The position numbers and the translations under genes are program-made. The notes beneath the pieces were generated by a model. That model saw nothing but the letters and a program-made list of their open reading frames with translations. It was not told where the DNA came from and made no database searches. A stretch of DNA of 64,000 nucleotides. It comes from Psammoneis japonica (lineage: Eukaryota). Shown here one piece after another: positions 31,850-59,247 of the stretch; position 1 is the first letter of the stretch; every line of letters begins with the position of its first letter. The DNA is taken from the NCBI GenBank assembly GCA_008632985.1, contig QPGO01000138.1, positions 124,001 through 188,000 on the forward strand, written 5' to 3'.

Positions 31850-32760
31850 TCAAAGAGTTGCCCAGAATCCAGAATGCTGAGCTGGGGTGTCATGGCGAGT
31901 CGCCTCCTCTTTGCAGACTTTTCTGCAGCATTGGCAGCACAATGGAGCATGATGTCCGAGTTTTGCATCCAGAGTCATTGCAAGTTGCCACAAATTTCAT
32001 TCTTCAAACAAGGTGTGTGCAAAAAGAGGTTCATCATTTTTTGATGCATTCAGCAACAACGCACCCATCTTCTCCAATTTTTAAGCTCAGATCCAGAAAG
32101 ACTGCAGAGGCAGAGAGTGGCAGGGAGGCAACCCAGTGGAGGTTGCCTGAGTTGTCAAGCTCATTTCCAAAGGCTTCCCAAGTCTCTCTGCTGTTTCTGG
32201 TCCACACTCCAAATGTGTCATTGATGGGCTGTCTGCAGCACAAGAGGTGTGGGGCAAACTTGTCTGCATAACTTGTCATTCGTGCAGCGCCTTGTGCAGT
32301 GTGGAGCACATGCAGGCAGTGCTTGTTCCCATGGCCATTCCAGCAAGTGCATTCTGTGGCACTTGGGGTGGTGTTTTTGCTTCCTCATGTGCTGTCTTGA
32401 GTGTTTCCATGTTGCCCTGGAATCAGCGGTGCTGGCTGCAACAGCAAGCCCATGTTGCCACTCCCATCAGTTGTGTTGGTTCATCCACGCTGCACTCTCA
32501 CAATGTGCTCTGCACTTTTTGGCAATGAACAAGGTGGGTCAGAGCAGCGGCACTTCAAGAGCTGCAGCTGCCGCCACAAACTTGTGGGTGCCAGAGTTGG
32601 CAGCAGTGATGGCGGATCCAACAGCAAGTCCATGTTGCCATTTCCATTGGTTGTGTTGGCTCATCTGCATTGTGCTCTCACAATGTGTTCTGCACCTTTT
32701 AGCAATGAATGACTTGAGTTCTGTGTCCACCCACTTGTGTGCTGGATCATTCTTGTCTGG
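31850..32760 (-). mobile_element. Degenerate Penelope-like retroelement RT fragment
   Basis: GMAMGTSTACMCSTLH, CCRQPINDTFGVW (degenerate YxRYIDDxFGxW), GNLHW, AVFLDLSLKI, KMMNLFLHTP, EICGNLQ*LWMQNS; internal ~90-bp duplication (32440/32620). Confidence 0.7.
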
Positions 32761-32989
32761 GGTGACTCGATGGTTGTCTTGCCCCAAAGACAATTGGATC
32801 TTGGAGGTTTTTTGTTTTCAATTGATGGCGAGCAGCACCAAGTCTTTGAACTTGCCCATTTCTTTTTTGGTTTCATTCTAAATCTTGTGCTCCACCACTC
32901 TCTGCATTGTCGGTGGTGTTGTGTTGTGCAGCACAACAGCTCTTGAGTTGCTCACTTGTTGTGCCAGCAGTGTTCTGCATTTTTCCTCT

Positions 32990-35352
32990 GACAAGTGCGC
33001 CAATGAAAAGCAAGGTGAGAGAAAATCCAACAATGGACAAAAAACTCATTCTTGCCAATTTTTTGCTCTGTTGTTCAAACTCAGCTCCCACAGCTGCACA
33101 TTTCTGCCTCAGCTTGTTCTCAACAGATTGAAGGCCAGCTGTCTCAGTCAAAGACATTGAGGCACCATGCACTCTTGTTTGCACTTGCAAAATGAAGGTT
33201 GTTGTGGCAATGTCTGGGTTTCAGCATTTGGCTTTTGCAGCAAAAGCCAGCAAGGACAATGACTTTCTGTGCAGCCTCTTGTTGTGTCATCAAGTGCATT
33301 CTTTCTGCAAGTGAAGAAAGCAGAGTGGGCATGAGTGTGTTGTGGGTTGAATTGTGAATTGGGGCTCTGCTGCTTGCATTTGTTTCTTGCTTGCTGCAGG
33401 CAGCACTCCTTGCATTTTCAGCATGGTCTTGATGACTGAATGTTCTTGTCATGAAAGTGTTGCACATCTGAGACTGGCACCAAAGTCCAAGGATTTCTGA
33501 CTGCACAGTCCCAGAAAAACTCACCTGTCAGCTGGGCTGTTCTCTTGCCTGCTGGCAGCAACACTCTGACCAATCATTCACTGAGCCCTGCAACTGACTG
33601 GTGTGCTGTGCCCATGTCACAAGATGTCAAACAGTGTCCCACTTGTGGTGGCATGTGTCACAATGGAAGAGCTGTGACTTGCCACACCACATGATCCATC
33701 TGGGTGCAAGGTCTGGCTGCACCTGATTTGTTGCTCACACCAGAAAACCATGAAAATGCTGCTCCATCAGTGCAGGAATCCCAGGTGTGGGTGGGGCATT
33801 TGACAATCTCCTCAACAGCTCTGCCACATCATTGCTTTGGATGCGCAACACAAGCCAGATGTTTTCAAGAAAAGCAAGAAAACTGGGAGGTTTGCTCTCA
33901 ATGCCAAGATCTCACTTTGTCTCTCACCTTCAATTTGTGTGCCAAGTCATCCACAATGGTGCTGCAGGAAAAGCTGTGAATGTGGGAGGTTGTTGGCAGA
34001 CTGCTCAAGCTCTGTTCTGGTGCAGCAGCCTCTGCACCAATCTGGGTGCTGAGAGTTTCAGGATCTGATGTCCTCAAATGAGCAAATGATGTCAAAAAAG
34101 GACACAAGCCATGCAAAGAGGTTCATCCCAGAAGGAGGACAAATCCAAGAGCTTGCAGTTGCAGACATCCATGCTGGCTGAATGATGGGCAAAATGCTGC
34201 ACAAATGAGTGGGGCAACTGCACAGAGACAACCCACCAAGGCCACAGAGCACAGTGTGCTTGCTGGGACATCTTCTGCTGGAAGCAGTTTTGAGCCACAC
34301 CTTGTCTGGTTCCATGCCCCCCAGTGCCACCAGCGGCATCTGCACATCCAAGAGAGGAGGTGAGGAGCCTGGGGCAAAATGACCAGCATCTGCCTTTCAT
34401 TTTGTAGAGTGCAAAGCCTTGGCTCACAGCTGCAATGTTGCAGTTGCAGAGCAGAAAGAGAGGGTTACAAAGACCAGACTCATGCTGCACACATGAGCTG
34501 GACACACAAAAAAGGCTTGCAAGGTGCACAAGTGACACAAGGGCAACTCCAAAACTCAACTTTGCAAATTGCAGATTGCACGAACAGCAGCATTCATCCA
34601 GCTGCACAGGCAGCTCTTGCAAATCATGGAGGATGAGTGCTGAAACTTGTGCAGAATCTCCCATGATGACACAGCTCCATCAACTCTGTGAGATGATGAG
34701 TGGAGAGGCAAGTGGTCCAGAAGCCTGGTGCACACTGTTCAGTGGCACAAGGGATGGAATCTTCTTTGTTTTCTTTCATTCAACAAGCCAACAAGAGAGG
34801 AAACACCTCACAGTGGTGCTCGCCAGGAGAAGACAAAAAGGGGTGCTTGTTGATGTTGTTGGGAGCATCATTGGGTGCTGCGCTGCCAAACCTTGTGCAC
34901 TGTGAGCAGCCCACCAAGAAGTCTGGCATGCTCAGCTTCCACAAGAGAATGGCCCTCTGGCAGAGCGGCAGCAAAGGCTCCTTGTAGAAATTGAGCTTGT
35001 CTCCAAGTTGCACTGGGTCACGCACCCACTCAAGTCCTCTTTCCAGCTGCAAAAAGGGTGCACTTGATGGCACACAAGGTCAAAACTTTGCTGTCACAGG
35101 CTTCTGCTGCACAAGTCAAAAATGCCAAAACCTGAGCATTGCAACAGTTTTTGCTGCATCGGCACAAGCAAGAGTGCAGGGTTTCTCAATGTCCTTGATG
35201 GAGACAGCAGCTGGCCTTCAATCTGTTGAGAATGAGCTGAAGCTGAGACATGCACTTGCAAGAACTCAGCCTGAGCAGCAGAAAAATCACAGGAAGGAAG
35301 TTCTCATCTGTTTTTGGATTTTTTCTCATCTCTCTTTTCACGGGCGCACTTG
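32990..35352. repeat. Diverged inverted repeat pair (~32990-33190 minus; ~35162-35352 plus)
   Basis: Translations QTRVHGASMSLTETAGLQSVENKLRQ and QARVQGFSMSLMETAAGLQSVENELKLRH on opposite strands. Confidence 0.7.
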
Positions 35353-36566
35353 TCTGCAGCAAGGAATGCATTGGCGTGATTTTGGTGGGAACATGTTTGA
35401 TGGCAAAATTGAACATCAGCTGTTGCTGCCATCACCATCAATTTTGTGTCACTTGGTCAGGGGGTGGGCCTGCGGTGGTGTGTGCAACTTGTGTGGGAAT
35501 TTGCAATGCTGCAAAAGTCTGCCATTGGTCAGCATGTGTGGGGCTTGCTTTTGGTGAATGCTGGAGGGCAGACATGTCTTTTTCACATGTGACAACTGCA
35601 CTTGCCAAAGACCCAAACACACTGGAGGACAGCATTTCTTTGGACAGTCCAGCTTGTGTCCACAGTTGCCTCCAAAATCAAATGTGATGCCACCACCCCT
35701 GTGCTGGGCAGCAGAGAGGGCCAAAAGCCAAATGGCTGATGCCAGGAGGGACTCAAAGCACAACCAGAGATTTGGAATTTGCAGGTCCCAGCCCTGGGGG
35801 ACTTGGCTCATGCCCTGAGTTGCCAGCACTGAGCAGCTCCTTCTGCCATTTTAGATGGTTGAGCAGCAAGGAAAGAAGGCAAAAAAGTTGCACAGCCCAG
35901 GTGGTGCTGGCTCACTGATTGTTCAGACCATGAGCCTCTTGACTCAGGGTTTCCAAAATTGGCAAAAAACTGTTCTCACCCAAGCCCCTCATCTTCTCCA
36001 AAGCTTGGTGTTGAACACTCTGCAGTTTGCTGTTGACTCTGGCTCATTTGGCATTTCCTGTTTTGTGGCACTTTCTCATTGACCCCCAGACGCAGAGCAG
36101 GTGCTGCACCAGCAGATGTTTTTGAGTTGGCCTGGCACTCTCAAAGAGTGGCTTCCTCAAAGAGGAGCCAGCTGGCACACTCCATTTGCAGAAGAACACT
36201 TGTGCCTGTTGGAGATCTGTCTTTTGTGGTGGGAGAACCCCAGGCATCAATTTTCATGGAGTGGAGGTGGTTGCAACATCAGGCTGCCCCCCACCCCGGG
36301 CACTGGAAATGTCCAAGAGCTGAGCAGTGCCAGAGGCTCAAAGCAAGTCTGGAGATTTGGGATTTGCAAATCTGAGCCCCAGGGAACTTGGCAGACATTT
36401 GGAGTCCCTGGCACTGTGCACCATGCAAACAAGCTCTGTTGCAACAAACACAGGACCAATGTGATGTTCAGCAAGGGAGCAAACATTGCAAAATCTCAAA
36501 ACACCACTCAAAAAAGCCATCCAAGTCACCCCAAGATGGCGGTTGGTGCCAGGATGCAATTTCTGT

Positions 36567-36792
36567 GAACTCAATCAATCAACCCAAAAATGACAAATGG
36601 GTGATCTGCTTCACTTTTGATTTTGACCACAGCTGCACATGTGGCATGTCCATCTGGTTTACATTCTGACAGACTGGAACTCAGTCAATCAACCCAAAAA
36701 TGACAAATGGATGATCTGCTTCACTTTTGATTTTGACCACAGCTGCACATGTGACACATCCATCTGGTTTACATTCTGACAGACTGGAACTC
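36567..36792. repeat. 110-bp tandem duplication
   Basis: Two near-identical units aactca-tcaatcaacccaaaaatgacaaatgg...acagactggaactc. Confidence 0.92.
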
Positions 36793-37918
36793 TGTCCAGT
36801 CCAACAAATGTGGCAATTCATGTTGCATCTGAGCTGTGCTTTTTTTCCTGAATCTCATTTGAGCTGGAGATTCAAATGCGTGTGCATCTCTTTTTTGTTG
36901 TTGATTTTTTTCAGGCTCGCAGATTTCCAGAAATGAGGCGCCACTCTCTGGTTGCACTCATTGGCTGCATCTTTCCATGATTTCCTTTTGTGGGGCAACA
37001 GCAAAATGATGTTCTCTGTCACCACTCCCAACTGATGGCATCATTCTTGGACCTCTCAGATTCATTGTGGTGGTCAAGACATGCTTTGTCCTTGGGGATG
37101 ACTTTTTTTTACACTCAACACAGGTGATTGACAAGCAACAGAAATGCTGAATGCTTTTTCTGGTGGTTTGCCTTTGAAGAGTGCCAGTGTGTGCTGGCAT
37201 CTAGTTTGAGATGCATGGCAGAGTTAGATTTTGATTAAAATGACACAAACAAGGGCAAACTCAGGCAGAACAAATCTGCTGCCTCACTGGTTGCCTTCTC
37301 AAAGATGCCAGGAAACTGAAGCACAAACATCCTTCACCCCCACGTGATGGCATTTGCAATGACCTTGGTGATGACAGCAGCCTCTTGTTGCTTGCACCAG
37401 TGGCAGGTGCTTTTTGAGAATCCACCAGGCCAAAAATGTCCTGGTCTTCTTTGCTGTGCAATGCAAGCAACTCTTCTGTGCTGTGAGTGGGTGATGTCTT
37501 GTGGCTGGAAGGGGCAGGAGGAGCAGGTGGGAGAGTGGCTCACAGCTCTGGGCTCATGGTTGCTTGTGTGTTTTCTTGACAATGTGACAAATCATGTTGG
37601 AGGGAGCCACAGTCAAAGTCCTGCCAGAGCAGGTGGGGGATTGCACGGGTTGTGGGCACTCATCACTTGCCAGGCACCCTGCAAAGAAGCAAAGCGCCCA
37701 GCCAGCAGGGCATGGTTTTCATGGGGTGCCTTCTGCCTGGCATTGCTTTTTTTGCCTGTGGACACAAATGCATGTTTTGTTGTCCTGGCACCTCAGCCAA
37801 AACAATTGCCATGTCTTCATCATCTCCTTGGGGGAAACTCACCCCCATTCTTTCTGAGATGAAGTGAGATCCATCGATTTGGATGCAGCAGATGAGCTTG
37901 GCTGAGCTTGAGTGTTGG

Positions 37919-38112
37919 TGACAGAATGCCGAAGGTCAACAGTGACAGAGGTGTGAAAGACTCCCCAAAGCACCAGGACTGTGACAACACGAGTGCCAGC
38001 AGATGAGAAAGTGAGAAGCAGATCTCAGAGAGATCTGCTCATCTGTCCAAATGGTCCAGCCATCATCCGCATCCAGTCTGTCCATCCTGCGACAGGTGTA
38101 GACAGGCTGACA
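37919..38112 (-). repeat. LTR A (194 bp), preceded on the minus strand by PPT GATCAGGGGAGGG (38113-38125)
   Basis: Aligns with 38263-38456 and 48304-48497. Confidence 0.9.
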
Positions 38113-38262
38113 CCCTCCCCTGATCTGTGACATCTCAACATAGAGAACAGTGCAGATCAAACCAAAGAACAGGGATGATGTGAGGAAAAAAAACAGAGAG
38201 ACTGGACATGGGACACAATGAGTGTCCATGCCCAATGCGCCATCAAACAAGGGCTCACAACC

Positions 38263-38456
38263 TGACAGAATGCTGAAGGTCGACAGTGACAGAGGCATGA
38301 AAGACTCCCCAAAGCACCAGGACTGTGACAACACGAGCACCAGCAGATGAGAAAGCGAGAAGCAGATCTCAGAGAGATCTGCTCATCTGTCTAAATGGTC
38401 CAGCCATCATCCGCATCCAGTCTGTCCATCCTGCGATGGGTGCAGACAGGCTGACA
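38263..38456 (-). repeat. LTR B (194 bp) with PBS-like GGTTGTGAGCCC (38251-38262) and PPT (38457-38469)
   Basis: Direct repeat of LTR A. Confidence 0.9.
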
Positions 38457-38761
38457 CCCTCCCCTGATCTGCAATGTCTCAACACAGCGAATGGTGCAGA
38501 TCAAACCAAAGAATGGGGATGATGTGAGGAAAAAAAACAGAGAGACTGGACACAGGACACAACAAGTGTCCATGCCCAATGCGCCATCAAACAAGGGGGG
38601 CAATGCGCAGCAGGGAGGCCAAGCTTTCTGTTTCGATTCATTTGTTTTGTGAGCCGATCAAGCGAGCCTCATCGTCTGATCCGACAACTTTTTGTCTCGC
38701 TTTCCCGGCATTTTTCACGACCGTAGAAACATGCCAGATTTCTGCGCGTGCATGACCAAAA

Positions 38762-40813
38762 ATGGCTCCACCCACTAAAACCATGGCGTCTCCCGACCTT
38801 ACAAAAGCCGCTCCCACGTCAACTGCAGAGATCCACTGCGAATTTGAGGCACATGCAACAATGCCACATCTACATCAGTGTCTGAGTGCGGTTTGTGCGG
38901 ACTCCATAACTGATCTTGATCGATTTTTTGACGATCCAGAGCACACGCAACCCAAGAATGATTTTGCGGACATGCTCCGCGATTGTTTCATCCACGAAGC
39001 GTTTCCACCTTACACAGCTGATCCCACGGATATAGAATCAATCAAGACGATTATGGATCAAGCCCCGTTCAGACTTCTTGACCCTCAAAGGCCTCGTCCA
39101 GTCCACCTGACGACTCCGATCTCATCAAAGATGATCAAGACGAATCTTCAGAATGGTGAACAATCTCTGTTCATTGCCACATCTACCCAACACATGCATG
39201 TTCATCCGGACATGCCACGGAACTATCGCAATTGGAGCGAGTTCTCTCTTATGCCCCACCAGAAGAAACAGCAGCCTCCGTCTTCTTCTCAGAAACCTGC
39301 AGGACCTGCTACATTGACTGTGGCTGACTTAGTCACTGCACTCAATGCACACGCGTCGAGCCATGCTCCGCCTTCTACAGCTTCTGCTGAGACATCTGGA
39401 AGTGCTGCATCCTCCATGACATCGAAGTGCCTCTTCAATCCAAACACACTTCCTCCAGATGTTCACGCACGCTGTGACCGCAAAGAAGATGGAAAAGTCA
39501 CTCTTCAGAGCTCTCTCGTCCCTTACGACCATGGATTCCGTCACTGTGTTGATGCATCCGATCGCATCATCCTCAACGATGGCACCCTTTTCATCATGAG
39601 CTCGACTCCTGATCAGAAAATGCTGTTCAGGGAACCTCCTGCATGTCATGACGACTCCCCCCCTGGGATGCGAGCATGGTGCCAAAATTTCCAACGTCAT
39701 GCCTTTGATTCAGGTTGCCACACACATCCATTGTGGTGTTTTGCCAAGGACCACGGTGGTGAGAAAGGTTTCGAGATTGGAAACGGCAAAGATGACGACT
39801 TGCCCCAGCGTGTGTACATCCACTGCAAGGAAGCCCAGAGCTCTCTCCACAAGATCCTGTCCAAGTCGGACATGTTCCCCAAGAACAGCAAGCATCATCC
39901 GATTGTTGCATCATGCTGCGGTGACGGATGCAAGGCTCTCAAGCAGATCATCTACGAGAATCACCCTGCTTTTGACCATGATGCTGCAGGACTAGTTGAT
40001 TCCCATCCTGCCCAAGGCAATCGATCTTTGACGGACTGCCACATGATTTTCAATGATTTCCTGCAGCTGCGTGCATGCATCTTTGATGCGGACTCTACGT
40101 TGAGTGATCCACGGGAGATGACTGTCTTTGTCAAGAACAGCAAGTGCACCAAGTTCTCATCTCGTGCTGCCAGAGATGAACGGAAGTCTCCAGCTGTGCA
40201 GAAGAAGTGCACCGATGCACAGATTGTCGAGACTCTCTCTGATTTCCTCCGCCAACCAGATGGTCCATCCATTGACACCCGTGCAACACCAAGCATTTCC
40301 TGCCGTAAATGGAATCGTGCCAATTGGGAAACACGATGCACGACTGTTGATGTCAATGCTCTCCAGGTCCCCGAGATCCCTCCACTTGAACCAGTCGATG
40401 ACTCTGCTGTTGAAGATGCTGGTGCGGAATCTCTCTCTTCGGATGCCTTCGACACTCTTTGCGACGAGTTGCATGGACTTGAGTTCCCCTCCACGGATGA
40501 AGATCGACTCCTTCACCATGTCCACTCGGCTTCAGTTTATGGGCTGAAAGTTGCTCCGACTGAAGCTTCCAAGAAACCGTGTCTCGTCTGCTCCGGTGAA
40601 CACTTGTTTGACGACTGTCAAGTCTTGAAGAACAATCCGTACATCAAGGGATTCCATGTCCGCTTTTGCCAATTCTTGAAGAGGGAGGCAGCCATGCGTG
40701 CTTCTGAGTTCCAAGGACCCCAAGGCCTGCTCCCCCCTCATCATGAAAACCCTGAAAATTCGACTAAATCTGGTGCTCCGCCTTCGGATTTTCAATCGGG
40801 CCATCGCAGCTAG
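38762..40813 (+). mobile_element. Copia gag ORF, copy 1 (683 aa, open but mutated)
   Basis: Zn knuckle CLVCSGEHLFDDC; homologous to 46076-48125. Confidence 0.85.
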
Positions 40814-42890
40814 TTTCGGATCTCCGACGCTGCCCGTTTTCTCCTCACCGAGATGTGACGAATGTCAGCGGGATGACCTTGAAAGAGGGACTAACCGTCT
40901 CGTCATCTGCCGCTGAAGTGCCTCTTTCTCCGCAGATTGACATGGATGCCACCCCTGCCACTGCCAAGAAGGCATCATTCGACACCAGTGAATTGCCAGA
41001 CGATGACCCTGCTCCTCAAGAAGACACCGTCGATGCTGCTCCCACTCCGGATCCTTTGGAACAGGGGAGGGAAGCCTCAGAAACACCGGATTTCGAGGAA
41101 TGCATTGATCTCACCTACGATGACATGGCCATTGAAGATGGTTTTGCTGCAGTCAATTCTGTTCAAGTTGCTCCGATTGATCCATGCCAAGCGACTCACT
41201 CTCCTGCACCAGAACCAATGTGCTCTACTTGCTCTGTCCATGGGGTCAATTTTGCTCCGAATGAACGTTGCGCTCAACTCGACACAGGTGCTGACATTGC
41301 GTGCACAGGTGACCGTGACCTCCTCCATCGATGCCAAGAATTCACTCCGTCTCATCCCTGTCCCCTTGCTGTCAATCCCACCCTTGGCCATCACGCTGTC
41401 CCAGTTGGTTTCGGATGCCTGCGGATTCCTGCAGAGAACTCTGCCGGATGTGTTGAGGTTCGCACATGCTGTCACCCGCAGATCCAATCTATGTTGGTCG
41501 ATGAGCGACTGCTGCTCCATCAAAATGGTGCTCGTCGCGCAGATTGCAATGTCAATTGTGTTCTCAAGTTCCATGATCTCGGCACCTGCAAGTTTGTTGC
41601 ACGACACCGATTGCGCAAGAGTTAGGATGTCATTGTTCATGGGAAATTGATCAATGGAAAATGTTTCACTCACCCTCTCATTCTCCCGGAATCTAACGAC
41701 GAACTGGATGCATCTGTCAAGCGCCTCAAGACTGGTGATCCTTCTTTTGCCAATGAGTGTGAAGCGGTCTCTGCGCACATGATTGAGACTTGTCGTACCC
41801 ACCAACATGAAGCTCTTTGTCATGAACGCAAGTTGATCCCCCGTGTCTGTCAAGACATTCCTTTCGAGAAGCATGCTGAGAAGAATGTTCCTGTCCAGTC
41901 TCTCAAGGCCGACACGGAACGTCTTTTGTGGCATCAGCGACTTGGTCATCCGAGTGATCACTGCCTTTGTGGTGCCCACAAACACGTTGACGGCGTCCCC
42001 AAGTTTGCTCACGGAACCTCTCCCCTCGACACTTGTCCTGCATGTGTACAAGCAAAGCAGACGAAGGAACCTGCCAGTCCGAACACTGCTCTCACTGCCA
42101 CCCAACCCCGCCAAGGCCTTGCGATTGATTTTTCCTTCTCTGGCCTGCCCTCCAAGAACTCGGAGCGCACCAAGGACTGTGTTGGATTGAGTGGCGAGAC
42201 TTGTTGGATTGCTGTTTACGATCATAAAACAAAGCGTCTCCATGGTGCGACTCGTGTCTCCAGAGGAAACCCCTTTGACTTGGCTTCGCCACTTTCTGGA
42301 AGAGCACTCGCCAAAATGTCCAGACAAACATGCATTCATGGATCAAGGAGGTGAATTGCATCAAAACCCAGAAGTTCAACGACTCTTTGAGGATGACTTT
42401 CATCATGCAATTCGTCCTGCGGGAAAAGATGCTTCAAATCAGAATGGCCCAGTGGAACGCAGTCATTTGTCTGTTGCCAACGCCATCCGGGCGATGCTCA
42501 TCGGTGCCGATTTGCCCACAAAATTCTGGCCCTGTGCTTTTCATCATTTCATTCGAATCAACAACACTGTGCCATCCCGCGGACAACCTGCTGCTCCGAT
42601 TGCTCTCGCCACTGGTTGGAAGGATGATTTCAAGAACTTTCGCATGTTTGGTTGTCGAGTGTGGGTGCGTGCATCGAATCACCACCCCGCAAAATTTCGG
42701 TCCGTCTCTTGCAAGGGAATGTTCTCAGGCCATCTTCTGGACACCACCAAGAACATCCCATGGTGTGATCCTGAGACATCGCGTGTCAAGCTTGCCAAAC
42801 ACATCCACTGTGATGAGGGCATGAATGATCTTCCCCACGACGCTCTTCCGCCGAATGCAGTTCACTTGGAACGTGCTCAAGATGGCAACA
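40786..42890 (+). mobile_element. Copia pol 5' half (protease, GAG-pre-integrase, integrase), degenerate and truncated
   Basis: AQLDTGAD protease; LWHQRLGHP..CPACVQAK; IDFSF, DQGGEL, QNGPVERSH, FWPCAF, FGCRVWV. Confidence 0.88.
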
Positions 42891-42925
42891 CCTCTGTCAC
42901 TGTCGACCTTCGGCATTCTGTCAGT

Positions 42926-43066
42926 GCCAGGACTGTGACAACACGAGCACCAGCAGATGAGAAAGTGAGAAGCAGATCTCAGAGAGATCTGCTTGTCCAT
43001 CTAAATGGTCTGGCCATCATCCACATCCAGTCTGTCCATCCTGCAACAGGTGCAGATGGGCTGACA
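42926..43066 (-). repeat. Partial LTR C abutting an inverted LTR end (~42888-42922)
   Basis: Matches LTR A/B/D; PPT at 43067-43079. Confidence 0.85.
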
Positions 43067-43246
43067 CCCTCCCCTGATCTGCAATGTCTCAACATAGAGA
43101 ACAGTGCAGATCAAACCAAAGAACAGGGATGATGTGAGGAAAAAAGACAGAGAGACCAGACACAGGACACAACAAGTGTCCATGCCCAATGCGCCATCAA
43201 ACAAGGGGGCAACACGCAGCAGGGAGGCCACCGCGGAAAAAAAATG

Positions 43247-45895
43247 TCAACAGCAGTGTCCCATCATGCGTCGAGCATGGCGGGCGTGTGACACCCAGCC
43301 AAGAGCCTTGGCAAGGTCATCGCTGGGGTTGACAATGCCAGGGACATGTCTTGTGACAATCTTGCCCGCTTCCTTCCATTCTTGAATCGCAAAAAACTGG
43401 ATCTCAATGTGACGGGAGTGCTCGGTCGGAATCGAGTGATTGATGATCTTGATCGCCGATTCGTTGTCAACATGTGACGGGGTTGGCTCCGTCTGAGGGA
43501 AGCCTGGGTCGTGCAAAACGTGATGAAGGTGCAGGACATGCTTGGCAGCAGTTCCAGCAGCACAGAATTCAGCTTCTGTAGATCTCGCAGCGGTCACCGA
43601 TTGGGTCTTGCACCGAAAAGACACAGCAGCACCAGCCAACATGCAAGCACAGCCAGTCGTAGAACGACGGTTGCGGAGGTCATTGCCACAAGCAGCATCC
43701 AAGAAAGCAACGAGTTGATGATCACATGCAGGTCAAGGGAACGATGGTGAGGTCGGGTCCGGAGTGAGACGTTCGAAGGGGCAGGCAGGTAGTTTTGAGT
43801 CTCGGGTGGGCTTTTTGTGGTTCAATTCCCAATGCTCAGTGCGTCGAAGGTGCTTGCATGTTCCTTTGAGCGCGTCACAGTGAACCACAGCAGGACAGGT
43901 CGAGAACTTGGAGAGAGCAGTGATGGCATGCCCAATGTCCAGTCGACAGACAACGTGCGCATGCAACAACTCGCCAAGAAGAGTGCGGCAGCCGAAACCA
44001 GCAGCTTGTTGTGGCTCCGCATGCTCCGGGGTTCCTTCAGCTGGGCCAATGGCAGTGTGCAGTTCACGAACAGAGTCAACAGGGAGTGGTGTAGCCTTGC
44101 AGTCGTCGTCGAGTTCCTCGTCCGTCGGTGTCGACCAACCATGTGAGGCACAAACCCGATCTACACAGCTGTGAACAGCAATGCCAATGGAGTCGTCACA
44201 CTGATGAACATCTGCACCATTGAATTCGTCAATCATGCCAAGATGCTTGAATGGCGGAGAGGTTTCCAAATCCAATTGGAGAGCTTTGCCAATCCTGTCG
44301 TAGATCTTGATTGCAACAGACTCTTCAGGACAAGCGAGAGAGAAATCATCAACCTGATGGAGGAGCAAGATCTTTTGTCCTTCAAAAGCAGCAGAGCAGA
44401 CACATTTGTCATGAGTGGTGTTGCGAAAAAGCAGGTTCACATCAGACAAAACACCATTGATGTGTGTCTCCCAGAGCACACCGGCTTCTGGGTGTCCTTG
44501 GAGTGCATGTTGCATCGGAAGTGCCATGCTCCTGTCCAAGTCAATGCCAAATCGAGCCTTGCACCAGGTCGCGCATGCCTCGTCTGTGGCAACACACACG
44601 GGATGTGACGGTCGTGGAGAGTGTGCACAGGCATCACGAGCATCCCCACCAAAGACAGGACAGCTCATGGTCGCAGCAAGGGCAAAAAACATGCGTTGGA
44701 CAGGTTGCTCGACACAGGATGAGTGCATCAAGTAGAGACGATGTAGGATCGACGCAGCACGGGGAGATCCATTGCAGCACTGTCGAGAGTGCCGTGTGCC
44801 ATCATGCTTGAGGTCACATTGCCAATGCGGACAAAGTACGATGGCATCCTTGGGTCGTTTAATCGGTGCACCAAACATCCCCAACTCATGGAACTGGTCA
44901 AGTTGTTTGAATTCACCTGCATGCCATTCGGGCCACGTGTCCAACTTCTTGAGACGATGGCGGGTGAAAGTGCCCAAGGCTTGTTCCTCTGGAGCAATGG
45001 CATGAGATGATGTGGCACAGATGTTGACCACACCATTGTCACAATCGACAAAGAACGGCGGAAGGACATCGTCATCATTCGTTTTGGAGAAATCAATGTT
45101 GGGGTGGCGGACAGCAGCAACAGCATGCATGTCGGCGTTGGTGATTTCCGGAACATGCTCATCATCAGGATCAGGAGTCGGTGCACATGTGTTGTGTTCC
45201 ATCAGAGCACGTTGTAGAGCTTGAGAGTCCAGGCGACGTTCCGGCGCGAATTCAACGTCAAAATGAGTCTTGCCAGAATCACAGACTTGCTGAAAACATT
45301 TGACAGCCTCCTCTGCCGTGAAGACAGGGTGATCATCGATCGATGCGACATGCGCACCCTTGATCTTGTTGCGGGTGGCCTTCAAAGAAGAGAAAAGACG
45401 CGCAGCAGGAGAACCACGTTTGATGTCAGAGACAAATGCTCACCGACAGAGATCGTCTGTAGCCAAGGAAAGTCCAAACGTGGGATCAGCAAATGGTCCC
45501 TTCATCGTGCGCTTGATGGTCTTGGCAAAAGGATTCCCATGAAAGTGAAACTCATCCATCGTGGTTTCTTCAGTCTCGGCAGGTAAAGCCTTGCCATCTT
45601 GAGCACGTTCCAAGTGAACTGCATTCGGTGGAAGAACGTTGTGGGGAAGATCATTCATGCCCTCATCATGGCAGATGTGTTTGGCAAGCTTGACACGCGA
45701 TGTCTCAGGATCACACCATAGAATGTTCTTGGCAGTGTCCGGAAGACAGCCCAAGAACATTCCCTTGCGAGAGACAGACCAAAATTTGCGGGGCGGTGAT
45801 TCGACGCACGCACCCACACTCAACAACCAAATGTACGAAAGTTCTTGAAATCATCCTTCCGACCAGCAGCGAGAGCAATCGGGGCAGCAGGTTGT
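43247..45895 (-). mobile_element. Copia pol 3' half (integrase tail, RT, RNase H), degenerate
   Basis: ALQGHPEAG, HQVDDF, CRLDIGHAITALSKF, DAACGND..RRSTTG, STEAEF, DNESAI, HIEIQFFAIQEW, NPSDDLAK. Confidence 0.92.
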
Positions 45896-46075
45896 CCGTG
45901 GCAGTGTCGAATGATGCCTTCTTGGCAGTGGCAGGGGTGGTGTCCACATCAATCTGCGGAGAAAGAGGCATTTCAGCGGCAGATGACGAGACGGTTAGTC
46001 CCTCTTTCAAGGTCATCCCGCTGACATTCGTCATGTCTCGGTGAGGGGAAAACGGGCAGCGTCGGAGATCCGAAA

Positions 46076-48125
46076 CTAGCTGTGACGGCCCGATTGAAAA
46101 TCCGAAGGCGGAGCACCAGATTTAGTCGAATTTTCAGGGTTTTCATGATGGGGGGGAGCAGGCCTTGGGGTCCTTGGAACTCAGAAGCATGCACAGCTGC
46201 CTCCCTCTTCAAGAATTGGCAAAAGCGGACATGGAATCCCTTGATGTGCAGATTGTTCTCAAGACTGGACAGTCGTCAAATGAGTGTTCACCGGAGCAGA
46301 CGAGACACGGTTTCTTGGAAGCTTCAGTCAGAGTGACTTTCAGCTCACAAACTGAAGCCGAGTGGACATGGTGAAGGAGTCGATCTTCGTCCGTGGAGGG
46401 GAACTCAAGTCCATGTAACTCGTCGCAAAGAGTGTCGAAGGCATCCGAAGAGAGAGATTCTGCACCAGCATCTTCAACAGCAGAGTCATCGACTGGTTCA
46501 AGTGGAGGGATCTCGGGGACCTGGAGAGCATTGACATCAACAGTCGTGCGTCGTGTTTCCTCATTGGCACGATTCCATTTACGGCAGGGATTGGATGGTG
46601 TCGTACGGGTGTCAATGGATGGACCATCTGGTTGGCGGAGGAAATCAGAGAGAGTCTCGACAATCTGTGCATCGGCGCACTTCTTCTGCACAGCTGGAGA
46701 CTTCCGTTCATCTCTGGTGGCACGAGATAAGAACTTGGAGTGCTCAGTGTTCTTGACAAAGATGGTCATCTCCCGTGGATCACTCAACGTAGAGTCCACA
46801 TCAAAGATGCATGCACGCAGCTGCAGGAAATCATTGAAAATCATGTGGTGGTCCGTCAAAGATCGATTGCCTTGGGCAGGATGGGAATCAACTAGTCCTG
46901 CAGCATCATGGTCAAAAGCAGGGTGATTCTCGCAGACAATCTGCTTGAGAGCCTTGCACCCGTTGCCGCAGCATGATGCAACAATCCGATGACACTTGCT
47001 GTTCTTGGGGAACATGTCTGACTTGGATGGGATCTTGTGGAGAGAGCTCTGGGCTTCCTTGCAGTGGACGTACATGCGCTGGGGTAAGTCATCATCTTTG
47101 CCATTTCCAATCTTGAAACCTTTCTCACCACCGTGGTCCTTGGCAAAACACCACAATGGAAACATGCAGCAACCTGAATCAAAGGCATGACGTTGGAAAT
47201 TTTGGCACCATGCTTGCATCCCAGGGGGAGAGTCGTCATGACACACAGGAGGTTCCCTGAACAGCATTTTCTGATCAGGAGTCGAGCTCATGATGAAAAG
47301 GGTGCCATTGTCAAGGATGATGCGATCGGGTGCATCAACACAGTGATGGAATCCATGGTCGCAAGGGACGAGAGAGCTCTGAAGAGTGACTTTTCCATCT
47401 TCTTTGCAGTCGTAGCGTGCACGAACATCTGGAGGAAGTGTGTTCGGATTGAAGAGGTATTTCGATGTCACGGAGGATGCAGCACTTCCAGACGTCTCAG
47501 CAGAAGCTGCAGAAGGCGGAGCATGGCTCTACGCGCATGCATTGAGTGCAGTGACTGAGTCAGTCACAGTCAATGTAGCAGGTCCTGTGGGTTTCTGAGA
47601 AGAAGACGGAGGCTGCTGTTTCTTCTGGCAGGGCACAAGACAGAACTCGTTCAAATTGCGATAGTTCCACAGCATGTCTGGATCAACATGCACATGTTGG
47701 GCAGATGTGGCAATGAACAGAGATTGTCCACCATTCTGAAGATTCGTCTTGATCATCTTTGATGAGATCGGAGTCGTCAGGCGGACTGGACGAGGCCTTT
47801 GAGGGTCAAGAAGTCTGAACAGGGCTTGATCCATAATCGTCTTGATTGATTCCATGTCCGTGGGATCAGCTGTGCAAGGTGGAAACGCTTCGTGGATGAA
47901 ACAATCGCGGAGCATGTCCGCAAAATCATTCTTGGGTTGCGTGTGCTCTGGATCGTCAAAAAATTGATCAAGATCAGTTGTGGAGTCCGCACAAACCGTG
48001 TTCAGACACTGATGTAGATGTGGTGTTGTTGTGTGTGCCTCAAATTCGCAGCAGATCTCTGCAATTGACGCAGGAGCGGCTTTTGCAAGGTCGGGAGACG
48101 CCATGGTTTTAGTGGGTGGAGCCAT
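46076..48125 (-). mobile_element. Copia gag, copy 2 (frameshifted); protease and integrase deleted at ~45895
   Basis: Translation nearly co-linear with 38762-40813. Confidence 0.88.
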
Positions 48126-48303
48126 TTTTGGTCATGCACGCGCAGAAATCTGGTGTGTTTCTACGGTCGTGAAAAATGCCAGGAAAGCGAGACAAAAAGT
48201 TGTCGGATCAGATGATGAGGCTCGCTCGATCGGCTCACAAAACAAATGAATCGAAACAGAGGGCTTGGCGCAGAGGTCTGTGGCACAGCGCATGGCTACA
48301 ACC

Positions 48304-48497
48304 TGACAGAATGCCGAAGGTCGACAGTGACAGAGGTGTGAAAGACTCCCTAAAGCACCAGGACTGTGATGACACGAGCACCAGTAGATGAGAAAGTGAG
48401 AAGCAGATCTCAGAGAGATCTGCTCGTCTGTCCAAATGGTCTGGCCATCGTCCACATCCAGTCTGTCCATCCTACGACAGGTGCAGACAGGCTGACA
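48304..48497 (-). repeat. LTR D (5' LTR, 194 bp) followed by PBS-like GGTTGTAGCC
   Basis: Aligns with LTR A/B; TSD adjacent. Confidence 0.9.
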
Positions 48498-49263
48498 GTT
48501 GGAGAGTGTTGCCTTGCAAATTGCAGACATGTTGCATTGGCACCTGGTCATTGACAAGGACACCCCTCTTCTGTTCATTGTGGGAAAAGGAAGCAACGGT
48601 GCAAGTGCCATTGAGGCTGCCAGGATTTTGCATTTTCAAGGCTTTTCTGTCAACGTGGTTTCTCTTGTTTTGCCAACTGACAAAAACTTGAGACCCAACA
48701 TGTCAGAGCAATTGGAGCTCTGCAAGCAATTTGTTGGATGTGACATTTTTCATCCTCTTGACTGGGAAATTGTCAAGCTGCACAACAAAGGTGTCACTGT
48801 GCTTCACCGTGGTGAAAACCGTAAGCCATGAGTTTGCAATGAAGGTGTGCCGGCAGACTCACTTCAAAATTGTGTTCCTCAGCTGTCAAATGATTGATAT
48901 GATGCATTCGTCTGGTGCCGGAAGACTGCGTTTTTGAGAAAGATCGATGATTGGCGTCATCGTCGTGCTTCGATCGCCGATCGCGGTGTTTGATCAGTGG
49001 TGCATTGGTTTCATGTTATTATTTTCGTGCGCGATCGGGTGCGAATAAGAATAATTTTTGTATTCAAAAATACACACTTATAAATAGCTTTATTGAAATG
49101 TCATTGTAATTTTAGGATAAACCCGGGACTGACTACCCTAAAGTCTGCCATCAAAATTGGCCCAGAACTCTCCACGGTCCGCAGTGTGGGAGTAGCCAAT
49201 GGCGATAAGGCTACCAGGTTGTCACCGTTCGTACTTTTAACAAAGCTCGGCCGACGCTGATTA

Positions 49264-50233
49264 TTGTTTCTTGCGAGACTCTATCGTACACAGATATCAC
49301 TTGCGTGGTTTGCCTTGCCCTCGGAGGCTCTCGTGTGGTTTCCAGGACTGCTTTGTCGTTGCTCGGCATCGTTCCCGCGAAAACCGCATGTTAGCACGAT
49401 GACAACAACAAGAATGACAACAACAAATCTCCTACGCTTGATCCCAGAGAACGATACTCTCATCATCACTGACACATCGTTGTGCTCGACTGCTCGAACC
49501 GTAAAGTCATCGAAGAAGAGGAGGAGGAGGAAAAATAAATTGGTGAGTGTTTTGCAGCTGGGCTATTGTAGAAATCAAAATTTGACCGTTGTAGAATCGG
49601 CGTCAGTTTCGAGAAAAAACTCACTTTTTTCCTTCACTTTCCCTTCATGATGGAGGTTCCAAATAGCATTAATCAATGCCCCCTTCCTGGTATGTAGTAA
49701 ACGCACCGGGAGACCAACAGCGGGTTGTCCGTTCACAGTTGGCATTTTGTGGTCGAGTTCTCACACGTGTTTGCTTTACGTTGCCTCTTCATGTAGATCC
49801 GCTGAGACGTATCTTGGATGGTCTCACTGAAAAGCAAAAGGAAGACACACATTATCTGCTACTGTTTCCCGGTGATTTACCTGATGTGAGGCTATACTGC
49901 AGACTTCAACTCCAGAAGTGGATTGGCGAAATAGGAGCGGCGGCGTTTGTGGATGGCCTTTCCGATCAAGTTCTATTGGACTACCGCCGCAAAGATGATG
50001 AATCGGTTTCGGATTTGTCCAGTGAGGGCGACGACGGTCACCTTTGGAGTGAACGTCCCCGTGCTGGGCTCCCTCGCCTGTCTAAAGGAGCATCTTCCGC
50101 TCTGTCTCAGGGCGATGAGGTCCAGGGGATGCATCCAAGTAACAGTGTCTCTGCGACTGGTGCTACCGCTGGGAGTGTAGATTCCTATCCTAGTGATGAG
50201 ACACCTGGCAACGGAGTGCCAAGGCGTTCATAG
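49264..50233 (+). CDS. Hypothetical protein, exon structure uncertain (last exon ~49798-50233)
   Basis: Open frame with normal composition after an AG acceptor; no recognised motif. Confidence 0.3.
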
Positions 50234-50702
50234 ATGATCCTTTGCAATGTGATGAGCTGTCCCGGTGGTTTATCACGATCCCGTATTTCGCAACTACACT
50301 CATCGTCGCCTATAATTCCTTACAAATAGCACAACACGTTCTGATTCATGGTTCATCATTCTAGGTTGACAACACAGTGCCGTCGTCCGCGTGCGAGTAA
50401 CGCCTGAGCATCGGCTGGTTCGCTCTCTTGCCACGGTAGGTGCTTCTGTATCCGCAAGTTAGAGTTTCTTAAGGCTTTCTATCTAACCGACATCTTTCAT
50501 TTGTTTTGGCGTTTGTTTTGGCGCGTCTGAGGTGTTCGAAATGCGAGCATTTTTGTGTTGTGTGTCGCCTCATTGTTTGTTCGGTTCTGCAGAGTTTGCT
50601 GTTTTGCTTGCTTTTCTCCTTGCTTTTGTGCTGAACCTTTCCCTTTCCTCCAGTCACAAATCTTGAAACAGGTGTCGTCTCTCTCACCCAACACAAGCAA
50701 CA

Positions 50703-51295
50703 ATGAAGTTCACCGGCCGTGCCGCTGCTGCGTTCGCCCTTGCCCTTTCTCTACGGAGTGCCTGTCCCGAAGACGGTACATCTTCTGAAGCATTTGAAAT
50801 TCCCACGTGCAACTACATTGATTGTCTCGGCACGGTTCTGGACAGCATTGGACGCGAAACATTCGGTGATGCCAAGCTCGATCGACGTTCCCGCATCGCC
50901 CATACGAGACTTGCTGTTGCAAAAGAAGCCATGGAAGAGGGCGGGAAAGGCATCCTGGGGTCGCTTAATACGCTCATGAATGTGAACGCGCGTCTTCAAA
51001 GTATAGCATACAGGGCTGCCATGAAAAACAATTTGCAGGCAGAAGAATCATCAACGAAGCAGCAAAAACGTTGAGCCCGTGTGCAGCGGAACTCATGGAA
51101 GGCATGATTTCCATTTTGCCCAAGAGGGAATTGAGCGACTTTCTTAATCCTGGAAGGGCGACGCGAACGTTGGAAAGGGTAAAATCCCTTATCGAGGAGG
51201 GTAGATACGCAAAGAGTGCATATAGGTCCGAACTTGGAATAGAACGGATGACCGCCAAATTCGAAAAAGAACGGATTCGGTTCAGTTGTTTTTAA
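50703..51295 (+). CDS. Hypothetical secreted protein (one frameshift near 51025)
   Basis: Signal-peptide-like MKFTGRAAAAFALALSL; adding one A in the A run joins ORFs 50703-51074 and 51071-51295. Confidence 0.45.
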
Positions 51296-51557
51296 GATCA
51301 TTAGAAGAGACTGCTTCAGAAAAGCGAGTCCATGAAACCATGTAGATAGAATGGCGTTTCTTCTTATATCATAAAACACAGCATTGTACTACCAGCATAC
51401 CGGTAAGCTACACGGTGCTCCCAGCCGTAATTATGAAGTCGCTCTTCTCGTTTTACCCAAAAACCAAGCCACCCGTGTATGTGTTGTGTCTTCACGCGTC
51501 TATACCATGTAAGTATGGCAACGCTGTATTGCTCTTTTAGCGTGTTCAATCCAAAAG

Positions 51558-52517
51558 TCAAACCACCGCGTGATGGCGTGTCCCAACAACGGGTTTGCTT
51601 TCAACTTTCTTAACATTTTGTTCACAAGTTGAAGTAGCTTTCAATAAATGTTCCAATGTCGGAGAAGCAATGTCCATTGGAATGCGTTCTTCAACCGGAA
51701 TGTGTCTATACTCAACTTCTTCATCCTCTTCATCCTCATCTTCGGCTGCAAACACGATCGAGCACACCTCTGATCTCTTCCATACACTAATCGTATCTTT
51801 GACGTGCAACCAGTTTGTCAAACTAGCTTTGAGAACGCAGTGATACTCTTGCACGAGTCGTTCCTGGAACTCCCGACTCGATGATCTACCCCACGGTCCC
51901 TGATCAACTGATACGGTATCACCATAGAGTTCGCCGACATGAATGACATGGTCGCCTTTGTAATTTTCGAGACATTCTGCTCCAAGTGATAACGTGCTTT
52001 CTGGTTGATCATTCTCGTCGGGATAGCATAAGAACAACGTACGATTGGCATTACGAATCTCATCAGAAGCCAAAACTTCGGGCCCACCTTTAGCAACTGG
52101 GAATTTATGACCGCTTTCACCATCAGGCTTCGATTCGCCAATCTTCCCACCCTGCTCCAATTCAGCATCGTATCCGACAACATCAATGCCCGTTTCTTGC
52201 ATACATCGGCACCAATACGCGTTTGATCCACAGCCAATTTCGACAATTGGACTAAAGTGTTTTAGAATTGCGAGAGCGCGGTCGTCTGGTGTAGCCCACG
52301 AGTATTTGTTTACGAGGGTTTCACCCAAGTCAGCTTGCTCCATCCAAAGCTCGCCGCGTCGCTCCGCCGAAAGCGACGAGGAAAAGAATCGATCTCGTTC
52401 AGGCTGTGGGACGGTATTGAGGAATTCTGACTGTGCAGCAAGGAGTGGGTTGGAATTATCGCGGTTCTTTTTTTCTCTCTTCCGTTTTCTGTTCTTGTTG
52501 CTGCTCTTCTTTGTCAT
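51558..52517 (-). CDS. Conserved SAM-dependent methyltransferase-like protein
   Basis: YSWATPD..IVEIGCGSNAYW..VVGYD..LFLCYPD..VIHVGE. Confidence 0.7.
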   Translation of the reverse strand: MTKKSSNKNRKRKREKKNRDNSNPLLAAQSEFLNTVPQPERDRFFSSSLSAERRGELWMEQADLGETLVNKYSWATPDDRALAILKHFSPIVEIGCGSNAYWCRCMQETGIDVVGYDAELEQGGKIGESKPDGESGHKFPVAKGGPEVLASDEIRNANRTLFLCYPDENDQPESTLSLGAECLENYKGDHVIHVGELYGDTVSVDQGPWGRSSSREFQERLVQEYHCVLKASLTNWLHVKDTISVWKRSEVCSIVFAAEDEDEEDEEVEYRHIPVEERIPMDIASPTLEHLLKATSTCEQNVKKVESKPVVGTRHHAVV

Positions 52518-56333: not shown

Positions 56334-56816
56334 ATAGACAGATTATCTAGCTAGACAGCCACCGGTAGACAGGCAGACAGACAGCTGCGGTAGATAGATG
56401 GGCGGGGCCATGCATGCGTGCCGCGCATAGACGCAACCTGTTTCGCGCTGCGCGGCTGAATTGCTGTGACACCTCCACAGCCAGAATTTTTTTACCACGA
56501 CATAACCACGGCCGCTAGCGACATCCTCTTTTTGATGTTACCACTGTTCAACAAGAAGCTTGCTCTCGCCGACACCACTTGCGCTCTTGACAATAGAAAC
56601 TAAGAGATTTTTATCGGGTAAGTCACACCCTTTATCGTGCGCTTTCCACGGGCTCAGGAAGTATCGGCACTAACCCATTTTTTTCTCTTCAGCTCTTATT
56701 ACGGCTCGACCCATCCCAACCTACCCGAAGACGTGTATCTCCATTACCGTCAACAGGAGCCCGTCACCACTGGCGCCTCTATCAGTTCTGGGCTTGCTAT
56801 ACCTGCTGTAGTGACC

Positions 56817-58460: not shown

Positions 58461-59247
58461 TCAAAATAGCCAACAACGGACGCAAAAAAAATTGAATCCA
58501 ATGTATTCAAAATTGCATGTGGGTCCCGGTGGCACACAAGAGTTCTCAACAAGGTGCCCACACACCACATCTCTCATGTTGTTGTTGCTTGCATTGCCAC
58601 TTCCATAACATGGCCTTCTTTTGCTGGCACACGGCAGATGCAAGGGTGGAGCCGCACACCTTTGCAATGGTTCCTCTGGGGATCTCGCTTGCATTTTGGG
58701 AGACGATGCCGTGGGCGATTCTTCTGTCATCACTGCAACAGGTAGAGGAAGGAGAGGTCAATCAAAAGCGCCAGTGGTGACGGGCTCCTTTTGACGGTAA
58801 TTGAGATACACATCTTCGAGTAGGGTGTGATGGGTCGAGCCGCAATGGGAGCTGAAGAGGAAAAAATGGGTTGGTGCCGATGATTCCTGAGCCCGTGGAA
58901 AGCGCACGATAAAGGATATGACTTACCAAAAATAAAGCTCTTAGCATCTGTTGTTAAGAGCGCAAGTGGTGTCGGGGAGAGTAACCTTCTTGTTGAACAG
59001 CGGTGATATCAAAAGAGGAGGTCGTCAGAGGCCGTGGTTTTGTCGTGGTAAAAAAATTCTGGCTCCGGAGGGTCACAGCAATTCAGCGTCCGGGTTCCGT
59101 CTATGCCGCATGCCAGTAGACAATGGTATAAAGCTCGCCACCCTATTTCGCATCAACCACCGACACAACATCACGATGGCACGATCACCCCGTTTGTGTG
59201 AAAGTCCTTTTCTTGAACAAATCTACCTGGCAGGGCACTGCGACAAG

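Follow-up and report, generated by a model that had tools for sequence, protein, structure and literature searches.

Two inverted Ty1/copia copies and their parts

We analyzed a window of 64,000 nucleotides from Psammoneis japonica (contig QPGO01000138.1 of assembly GCA_008632985.1, positions 124,001 to 188,000, forward strand), and all coordinates given here refer to that whole stretch, which has a G+C content of 48%. Two copies of a Ty1/copia-type retroelement lie at about 37900-48500, arranged inverted and tail-to-tail in a repeat-rich block without genes. The features of this pair make it quite probable that each copy, after descent from an ancestor of normal TA content, was hit independently by a DNA-level process that converts TpA to TpG or CpA on both strands.

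Copy 1 occupies the forward strand (38618-42888), and copy 2 occupies the reverse strand, from 48269 down to about 43231. The 5' arm of copy 1 consists of the 5' untranslated part and gag (38618-40985, + strand) and forms an inverted repeat with the arm of copy 2 (45904-48269, - strand). The ratio of observed to expected TA (obs/exp) is 0.18 in the copy 1 arm, for which the CG value is 0.78, and 0.14 in the copy 2 arm. The gag frame of copy 1 (38762-40813, + strand) is open over 683 codons, although most of its conserved Tyr residues have been replaced. A protein search with its translation returned three relatives at 33-38% identity, and no Pfam family matched the 683 codons. A TAG at codon 199 (47529-47531) interrupts the gag frame of copy 2, as do two single-base gaps close to its 3' end, which stand opposite copy 1 positions 40628 and 40738.

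The protease/integrase segment is carried by copy 1 alone (40986-42576, + strand, mapped by BLAST; TA obs/exp 0.09) and includes a gag_pre-integrs domain within 41647-42351. These 1591 bases are absent from copy 2, where the gap point falls between 45901 and 45904. A second integrase segment, which ends copy 1 (42577-42888, + strand) and carries an SH3_retrovirus domain, is common to both elements; BLAST and alignment place its counterpart, at 90% identity, at 45591-45901 on the - strand of copy 2. Both copy 1 domains score above their Pfam cut-offs (37 bits against 28.4 for gag_pre-integrs and 32.5 bits against 27 for SH3_retrovirus). The reverse-transcriptase part is found in copy 2 only (43231-45590, - strand; TA obs/exp 0.10), and its RVT_2 match (E 7.9e-6, 26.1 bits) lies below the cut-off of 31.6. 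The order of gag, gag_pre-integrs/integrase and then this sub-threshold RVT_2 match of copy 2 is that of Ty1/copia elements. The reverse-transcriptase frame of copy 2 (43733-45385, - strand) has 2 Tyr among 550 residues and reads His-Gln-Val-Asp-Asp at a motif where copia-type enzymes usually carry a Tyr preceding Val-Asp-Asp.

A unit of up to about 359 bases, here called U, starts with TG, ends with CA and resembles a long terminal repeat (LTR). Two of its copies, placed in tandem (37919-38253 and 38263-38621), adjoin the 5' end of copy 1, a third with its first 36 bases inverted lies between the two elements (42888-43230), and a partial fourth stands beside the 5' end of copy 2 (48294-48497), where its orientation is wrong for a copy 2 LTR. 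All four are on the + strand, and the U units are far lower in CG than the element interiors. The possibility that U units are the LTRs of both copies was rejected, because the units that flank copy 2 are wrongly oriented. No target-site duplication turned up around the copies, and a U unit with TG...CA ends adjoins only copy 1 in an LTR-like orientation. The pair resembles the diatom Ty1/copia LTR retrotransposons of the CoDi lineages in its copia domain order and diatom host (PMC2806351). Its gag matches no Pfam family, and its LTRs are not securely identified.

Reciprocal differences and the direction of TA change

A preliminary description of this DNA had drawn attention to reciprocal Tyr/Cys differences between the two gag copies and had proposed aligning the arms and classing the mismatches by dinucleotide. 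In the MAFFT alignment, the arms (38618-40985, + against 48269-45904, -) are 93.8% identical over about 2370 columns and differ by 145 mismatches (132 transitions and 13 transversions) plus the two single-base gaps. When mismatches are grouped by pyrimidine-purine dinucleotide, they prove strongly enriched in such steps, which hold 117 of the 132 transitions but only 1108 of the 2366 aligned positions (binomial p=5.7e-24). Three classes emerge. TA in one copy stands opposite TG or CA in the other at 19 sites, CA stands opposite TG at 31 sites, and CG stands opposite TG or CA at 34 sites. CG is opposite TA at none. A further 30 mismatches (17 transitions, 13 transversions) fall outside these steps. 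The 17 transitions are spread over 1258 other positions, and at this background density about 4.8 TA versus TG/CA differences are expected over the 355 shared TG/CA steps, which leaves about 14 of the 19 in excess. The background expectation for the CA/TG double differences is essentially nil.

All seven examples quoted earlier are present at the codon level in both gag copies. Copy 1 has TAC where copy 2 has TGC at codons 84, 255 and 398; the remaining pairs, copy 1 first, are TGC/TAC at 223, TGT/TAC at 238, TAT/TGT at 593 and GAT ATA/GAC ATG at 90-91. The copy that retains TA does alternate, being copy 1 at 13 sites and copy 2 at 6. The class of sites to which these examples belong is real but is the smallest of the three, and the CA/TG and CG classes had been overlooked. 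The 312-base integrase segment common to both copies adds 7 CA/TG, 11 CG versus TG/CA, 2 CA/TA and 3 other differences, and 24 of the 25 mismatches between the tandem U copies (37919-38253 and 38263-38597) also lie in pyrimidine-purine steps. At the codon level, the gag copies show 75 non-synonymous and 26 synonymous differences. As read from the aligned sequences, the reciprocal pattern together with the CA/TG doubles shows that TA was lost independently in the two copies.

Two copies alone give no direction, because a path from CG through TG/CA to TA and a path from TA through TG/CA to CG are mirror images. Composition offers one guide. Values of TA obs/exp are about 0.5 in neighboring genes, 0.43-0.60 in 4-kb bins composed entirely of gene-bearing DNA and 0.02-0.11 in the older repeat blocks; TG and CA rise to 1.3-1.7. 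G+C is 0.51 in the copies compared with 0.47-0.48 in flanking DNA. Tyr makes up 1.0% and 0.6% of gag in copies 1 and 2 and 4.2%, 2.8% and 0.1% in the three protein relatives (P0003, P0004 and the third, respectively).

A scan of metagenomes with the gag alignment yielded 80 loci whose gag DNA ranges in TA obs/exp from 0.02 to 0.81. We treated the 63 loci at or above 0.55 as TA-normal and the 12 below 0.45 as depleted, and a query-anchored tblastn pile-up of the 63 TA-normal relatives served as the outgroup. Tyr is present in at least 60% of these relatives at 17 gag positions. Both copies have Cys at four of these and His at another four, one copy has Cys and the other His at three, both retain Tyr at one, and five show other residues.

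The readable gag frame contains 26 of the 31 CA/TG sites, and a call was made where the relatives' majority residue reached at least 70% with n of at least 20. Eight of the sites judged match the residue of a TA ancestor, and one matches that of a CG ancestor (Ala 180). Three of the eight codons encode Tyr in most relatives (codon 320 in 56/63, codon 426 in 62/63 and codon 462 in 46/60). The other five (Leu 366, Asn 388, Ile 455, Lys 461 and Thr 470) each settle a single base of the pair, which is enough to exclude CG and agrees with a TA ancestor hit once per copy. At sites where a single copy has TA, relatives carry Phe 40, Tyr 14 and Cys 1 at codon 238, and Phe 49, Tyr 4 and Cys 1 at codon 255. 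At codon 206, Thr is found in 33 of 56 relatives and Ala in 1. None of the sites of this class that were judged in the relatives favors Cys.

A cleaner view comes from one metagenome locus (L062; TA obs/exp 0.14), which has five TA-normal relatives at 84-90% identity. At sites where at least four of the five agree, L062 has lost 22 of 30 TA sites (14 to TG and 8 to CA), whereas 0 of 112 TG/CA sites have turned to TA and 4 of 30 CG sites have turned to TG. Private changes were counted in four metagenome sets, of which only L062 was clean; those of L032 and L024 are shared with equally mutated partners.

Copies within the genome were also compared, using contigs of one sequencing run at 80% identity or more. 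The family is abundant, with 2163 such contig pieces, and 40 of 597 variable places were examined. At 41463 and 42858, copy 1 alone among the family contigs lacks TA. Majority rule among genomic copies was rejected as a means of polarizing sites, since, if each copy loses about 75% of its TAs, most copies will show TG or CA where the ancestor had TA.

As far as sequence can speak to direction, composition and outgroups support TA as the ancestral state that was lost to TG and CA. The preliminary description had reached the same view of TA, which is upheld by the TA depletion of both copies, by Tyr in the relatives and by aromatic residues at the Tyr/Cys sites that can be judged.

Rates, limits and competing explanations

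We estimated rates on the assumptions that invisible doubles, with the same product in both copies, are as frequent as visible ones and that 75-100% of CA/TG sites derive from TA. The common ancestor of the arms would then have had 79-94 TA steps, or an obs/exp of 0.55-0.66, which is at the family norm given by the 63 TA-normal relatives (0.55-0.81). By these estimates each copy has lost 71-76% of its TA and 13-23% of its CG, corresponding to 1.25-1.43 hits per TA site and 0.14-0.26 per CG site over a background of 0.012 per other base per copy. On these figures, TA loss would outpace CpG decay within the two copies by a factor of 5-10. Because the reconstructed ancestor is essentially unmutated, nearly all TA loss would be later than the split.

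A similar timing is suggested by comparison with the family. The 17 best-supported departures of copy 1 from almost all family contigs in the arm include 15 at which copy 2 agrees with the family, so copy 1 bears private changes. Moreover, the copies are unlikely to have been sources of insertions, because they carry Cys or His at 11 of the 17 conserved Tyr positions, and copy 2 also has the TAG and frame breaks. We infer that mutation likely took place after insertion, at this location, although the pair may represent two insertions and not a local duplication. The earlier proposal that mutation occurred in place after duplication is thus backed indirectly, by the reconstructed TA count and the private changes.

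By their footprints, two processes are at work here, TpA to TpG/CpA and CpG to TpG/CpA. CG is the ancestral state at four gag sites of the CG class, with one against. For six integrase sites the relatives carry the CG-coded residue, in 5/5 at five sites and in 4/5 at one. The copies have a CG obs/exp of 0.72-0.78, compared with 0.10-0.24 for the older blocks. Decay of CpG by deamination of 5-methylcytosine thus co-occurs with the TA loss, but is not its explanation. The older blocks (1-8500, 23500-27500 and 30500-38500) have TA obs/exp of 0.02-0.11, CG of 0.10-0.24 and TG/CA of 1.7-2.0. Since the copia copies have lost most TA but no more than a fifth of their CG, and both are nearly gone from the older blocks, TA appears to be lost before CG.

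Both strands are affected by the TA loss. On the sense strand, 45 losses led to TG and 36 to CA (p=0.37). Where sites are asymmetric, mutation falls on the strand indicated by the TA-pyrimidine half-site in 28 cases and not in 17, which is not significant (p=0.14). A purine precedes 109 of 162 half-sites of lost TA and 40 of 90 of retained TA (Fisher p=5e-4). When the whole window was split into 500-base bins, 61 were TA-depleted and 56 were normal. Among residual TAs, the purine-TA-pyrimidine context accounts for 13 of 140 in depleted bins versus 349 of 1136 in normal bins, and the pyrimidine-TA-purine context for 48 of 140 versus 189 of 1136. Purine-TA-pyrimidine is lost most readily, and pyrimidine-TA-purine survives best.

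Depleted and normal bins are grouped into blocks, and TA loss is confined to the repeat blocks. The TA-poor state extends about 520 bases beyond the last repeat unit and ends abruptly at 49017, where TA density rises from 2 per 500 bases to 20 per 250 bases. The mutation pattern of the copies is also found in the U units, in a tandem repeat and in flanking DNA next to the element. Editing of a sense transcript is ruled out because both strands, the U units and the non-element flank are affected.

Several alternatives to independent TpA loss in place deserve consideration. In a process like the repeat-induced point mutation (RIP) of fungi, TG/CA would be ancestral and each copy would have gained TA by C-to-T changes at CpA. 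The two-copy comparison is symmetric and blind to direction, and three sites have TA in copy 1 alone with TG or CA in other family contigs, as such a process would produce. Nevertheless, we consider this reading extremely improbable given that TA is five- to tenfold depleted instead of enriched, that G+C is not lowered relative to the flanks, and that positions with Tyr in TA-normal relatives have become Cys or His in the copies. It also leaves the 31 CA/TG double differences unexplained and predicts TA gains of a kind seen at none of the 112 TG/CA sites of L062. The preliminary description had named a RIP-like TA gain as one outcome that would overturn its view, and this is contradicted by the outgroups and by composition. 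If instead cytosine methylation alone were responsible, the CA/TG and CG classes would both stem from deamination of methylated CpG, with the TA class reduced to background transitions. Diatom LTR elements are indeed reported to be CpG-methylated (PMC2806351), the 34 sites of the CG class have CG-ancestral polarity (four against one in gag, and six integrase sites), and a CG ancestor is favored at 1 of 9 informative gag CA/TG sites and 2 of 7 integrase ones. However, 8 of those 9 gag sites exclude CG, and from 94 CG steps shared by the copies and 34 missing from one of them, about 1.5 visible doubles would be expected where 31 are seen. There are 19 TA-class sites where about 4.8 are expected, and a TA obs/exp of 0.1 finds no explanation, so that methylation by itself is very unlikely to be the whole cause.

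The changes might also have arisen elsewhere, through ADAR-like A-to-I RNA editing or through differing source copies, and have been brought here by two separate retrotranspositions. In keeping with this, the family is abundant, the pair is unlike a simple fold-back duplication, and on its 5' side the homology stops at a natural element boundary. Editing of sense RNA, though, would yield only TA-to-TG changes, but 36 of 81 losses are TA to CA, and the U units, tandem repeat and flank share the pattern without belonging to the element. The finding that 15 of the 17 best-supported differences of copy 1 are private to it, and the poor quality of both copies as sources, also speak against an origin elsewhere, which we regard as unlikely. 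The signature could even be an artifact in which a modified base at TpA in repeat DNA is miscalled as G or C, and the matching sequencing run does keep just 54% of the 31-letter words of the stretch. Such miscalling is hardly credible, however, since the TA-poor, Tyr-poor state recurs in 12 of 80 loci from independent metagenome assemblies, three record series among them, and in protein P0002. Furthermore, the two copies differ in direction at the same site, and a report on Bigelowiella natans describes the process as real mutations in lines of that alga.

Other observations weigh against independent TpA loss from a TA-normal ancestor, and these somewhat dampen our confidence. Only three of the 31 CA/TG sites reveal TA directly, through Tyr, and the five others counted as TA-type are also consistent with two hits within a single copy. 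Identity to the outgroups is low, at 26-41%. For the integrase piece, with five TA-normal relatives, 2 of 7 CA/TG sites favor a CG ancestor, so the CA/TG class is mixed; one site there points clearly to TA, and relatives carry aromatic residues at a further two. Ordinary TA gains could account for about 5 of the 19 single TA sites. At 39251, TA is found in copy 1 alone, with TG in copy 2 and nine other family contigs, and at 41623 and 41796 copy 1 has TA where 25/25 and 7/7 other contigs, respectively, have CA. These three may be gains, or they may be retention against shared loss. Given 13 TAs present in both copies and 19 missing from one, a uniform rate would lead to about 3.5 visible doubles, compared with the 31 seen. 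The uniform-rate model was rejected, as it fits neither a TA origin (3.5) nor a CG origin (1.5) of the doubles, and because of this failure we relied on outgroups for direction. Sites must differ strongly in sensitivity, or else mutation comes in bursts. Lastly, the same replacement is found in both copies at eight conserved Tyr positions and different ones at three. These counts are compatible with independence, under which about half are expected to agree, yet they hint at some loss before the split.

Additional features of the window border on these subjects. A gene fragment with a YjeF_N domain (NAD(P)H-hydrate epimerase-type; 48496-48937) begins exactly where the last repeat unit ends. 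Its Pfam match (E 2.4e-8) covers profile positions 6-82 of 169, and the gene seems to run on in another frame. Up to about 48808 the surrounding DNA lacks TA and nearly all CG, and TA density is normal only from 49017. The fragment is either a truncated gene remnant within the mutated domain or a case of the process spilling over into unique DNA. In TA-normal DNA, the two members of an inverted pair (56455-56776 and 58768-59087) are 88% identical and have 11 TA versus TG/CA differences that run both ways (7 and 4), no CA/TG doubles and 16 transversions. The process may have acted there at an early or weak stage, or the pair may have diverged in the ordinary manner. A tandem pair of units of about 210 bases (27576-27994), located at the edge of a depleted block, has four TA versus TG/CA sites, and its pattern is one-sided in that the second copy keeps TA at 4/4. 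A flanking sulfotransferase gene has five relatives with a named organism among the 120 matches listed, and all five are diatoms (Fistulifera, Epithemia, Pseudictyota and two MMETSP records), in support of a diatom host. For a flanking GrpE, the Protein Atlas points no more narrowly than to a eukaryote.

A candidate TpA mutator and its wider occurrence

If independent loss in place is correct, a DNA mutator restricted to certain domains would convert TpA to TpG or CpA, an A:T to G:C change, on either strand. The decay of methylated CpG to TpG or CpA would run alongside, 5-10 times more slowly. Both processes would feed TG and CA, Tyr codons would become Cys or His codons, and TAA and TAG stops would be removed. 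The sequence points to silent chromatin as the address, because TA-poor blocks coincide with CpG-poor, presumably methylated DNA. One possible enzymatic route, which we offer with some doubt and by analogy, is deamination of the adenine that follows a 5' T by an ADAT/TadA-like deaminase aimed at silenced chromatin. The tRNA adenosine deaminases act on A34, which follows an invariant U33, and this would accord with a T-A specificity. A thymine-based route, in which a modified T mispairs with G, would leave an identical footprint.

The closest known parallel is the TpA hypermutation of integrated viral DNA in Bigelowiella natans (Mettrop et al., bioRxiv 10.64898/2026.01.13.699255). As described in the accessible text of that preprint, 231 of 302 new single-nucleotide mutations fell in two integrated viral regions, and all but one of those in the viral regions were A:T to G:C, each at TpA. 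The mutations were confined to some mutation-accumulation lines, and an ADAT2-like adenine deaminase was proposed. The same text notes that ADAR prefers a 5' U and that TpA-poor coding sequences of B. natans are enriched in reverse-transcriptase and DDE domains. At the level of sequence, the signature of our locus matches that of Bigelowiella in specificity, direction, strand use and domain restriction. In both, judging from the same portion of the preprint, change is limited to TpA and leads to TpG or CpA on either strand, is confined to foreign, silent or repeat domains beside normal DNA, and leaves TpA depletion with CpA/TpG enrichment.

The two cases differ in other respects, again as far as that text extends. 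The Bigelowiella data are de novo mutations in chlorarachniophyte lines, whereas the history of the diatom locus is reconstructed from two copies and outgroups. Depletion is deeper here (obs/exp 0.02-0.18, compared with 0.45 for the viral region), TA loss is coupled to CpG decay, and the flanking preference for loss of purine-TA-pyrimidine and retention of pyrimidine-TA-purine was not found in the preprint. The word diatom is absent from the preprint. Searches of full-text literature outside subscription journals and bioRxiv supplements, and of diatom transposon papers, gave no description of TpA hypermutation in diatoms.

Other systems share some of these characteristics. RIP, known from Neurospora and other ascomycetes, changes CpA to TpA and thereby enriches TA. 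Like the process considered here, it acts on repeats through transition hypermutation of a specific dinucleotide, destroys transposon copies and leaves a record that shows when two copies are compared. However, its direction and chemistry are opposite, as TA is destroyed here and G+C is not lowered. Methylated-CpG decay in silenced transposons is represented at this locus by the 34 CG versus TG/CA sites with CG-ancestral polarity, but it cannot account for the TA loss and is the slower process. Editing by ADAR or APOBEC enzymes acts on RNA or single-stranded cDNA and marks one strand. Its deaminase-type, context-dependent transitions in retroelement sequence are comparable, although at this locus both strands and non-element flanks are affected.

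The metagenome loci indicate how widely the TA-poor state occurs. The 12 depleted gag relatives among the 80 (L024, L076, L062, L048, L032, L030 and six more), with values below 0.45 and down to 0.02, have Tyr near 0% and raised Cys or His, whereas others at 0.5-0.8 have about 3% Tyr. The process is therefore not a quirk of one strain and acts in other, uncultured hosts.

Loss of TA also alters how such DNA is read. The two elements contain 77 TAA and TAG triplets in 9652 bases, compared with 312 in an equal length of genic DNA. There are 43 reading frames of at least 100 codons in 36000-52000, overlapping and on both strands. These long frames, and the fact that copy 1 gag is still open, result from the near absence of TAA and TAG, and the frames are no evidence of genes. 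The change of Tyr to Cys or His and the loss of TAA and TAG thus create long false reading frames that mislead annotation. In addition, a majority-rule consensus of mutated copies assigns the wrong polarity to TA sites, and transposon dating based on divergence is distorted by TA loss.

A TA-specific A:T-to-G:C mutator directed against mobile DNA has so far been known from a single 2026 preprint on one alga. The present locus adds a reciprocal two-copy record with outgroup polarization, an estimate of the share of TA lost since the split, a measure of speed relative to CpG decay and background, and a flanking preference. It is a real possibility, though one we advance tentatively, that diatoms own an active TpA mutator directed at chromatin or repeats, with a preference for purine-TA-pyrimidine and probably acting by deamination of an adenine that follows a 5' T, and that it is shared with the rhizarian Bigelowiella as an old, SAR-wide (Stramenopiles, Alveolata and Rhizaria) defense that mirrors fungal RIP. 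If so, new retrotransposons would be inactivated about 5-10 times faster than by CpG decay and about 50-100 times faster than by background mutation.

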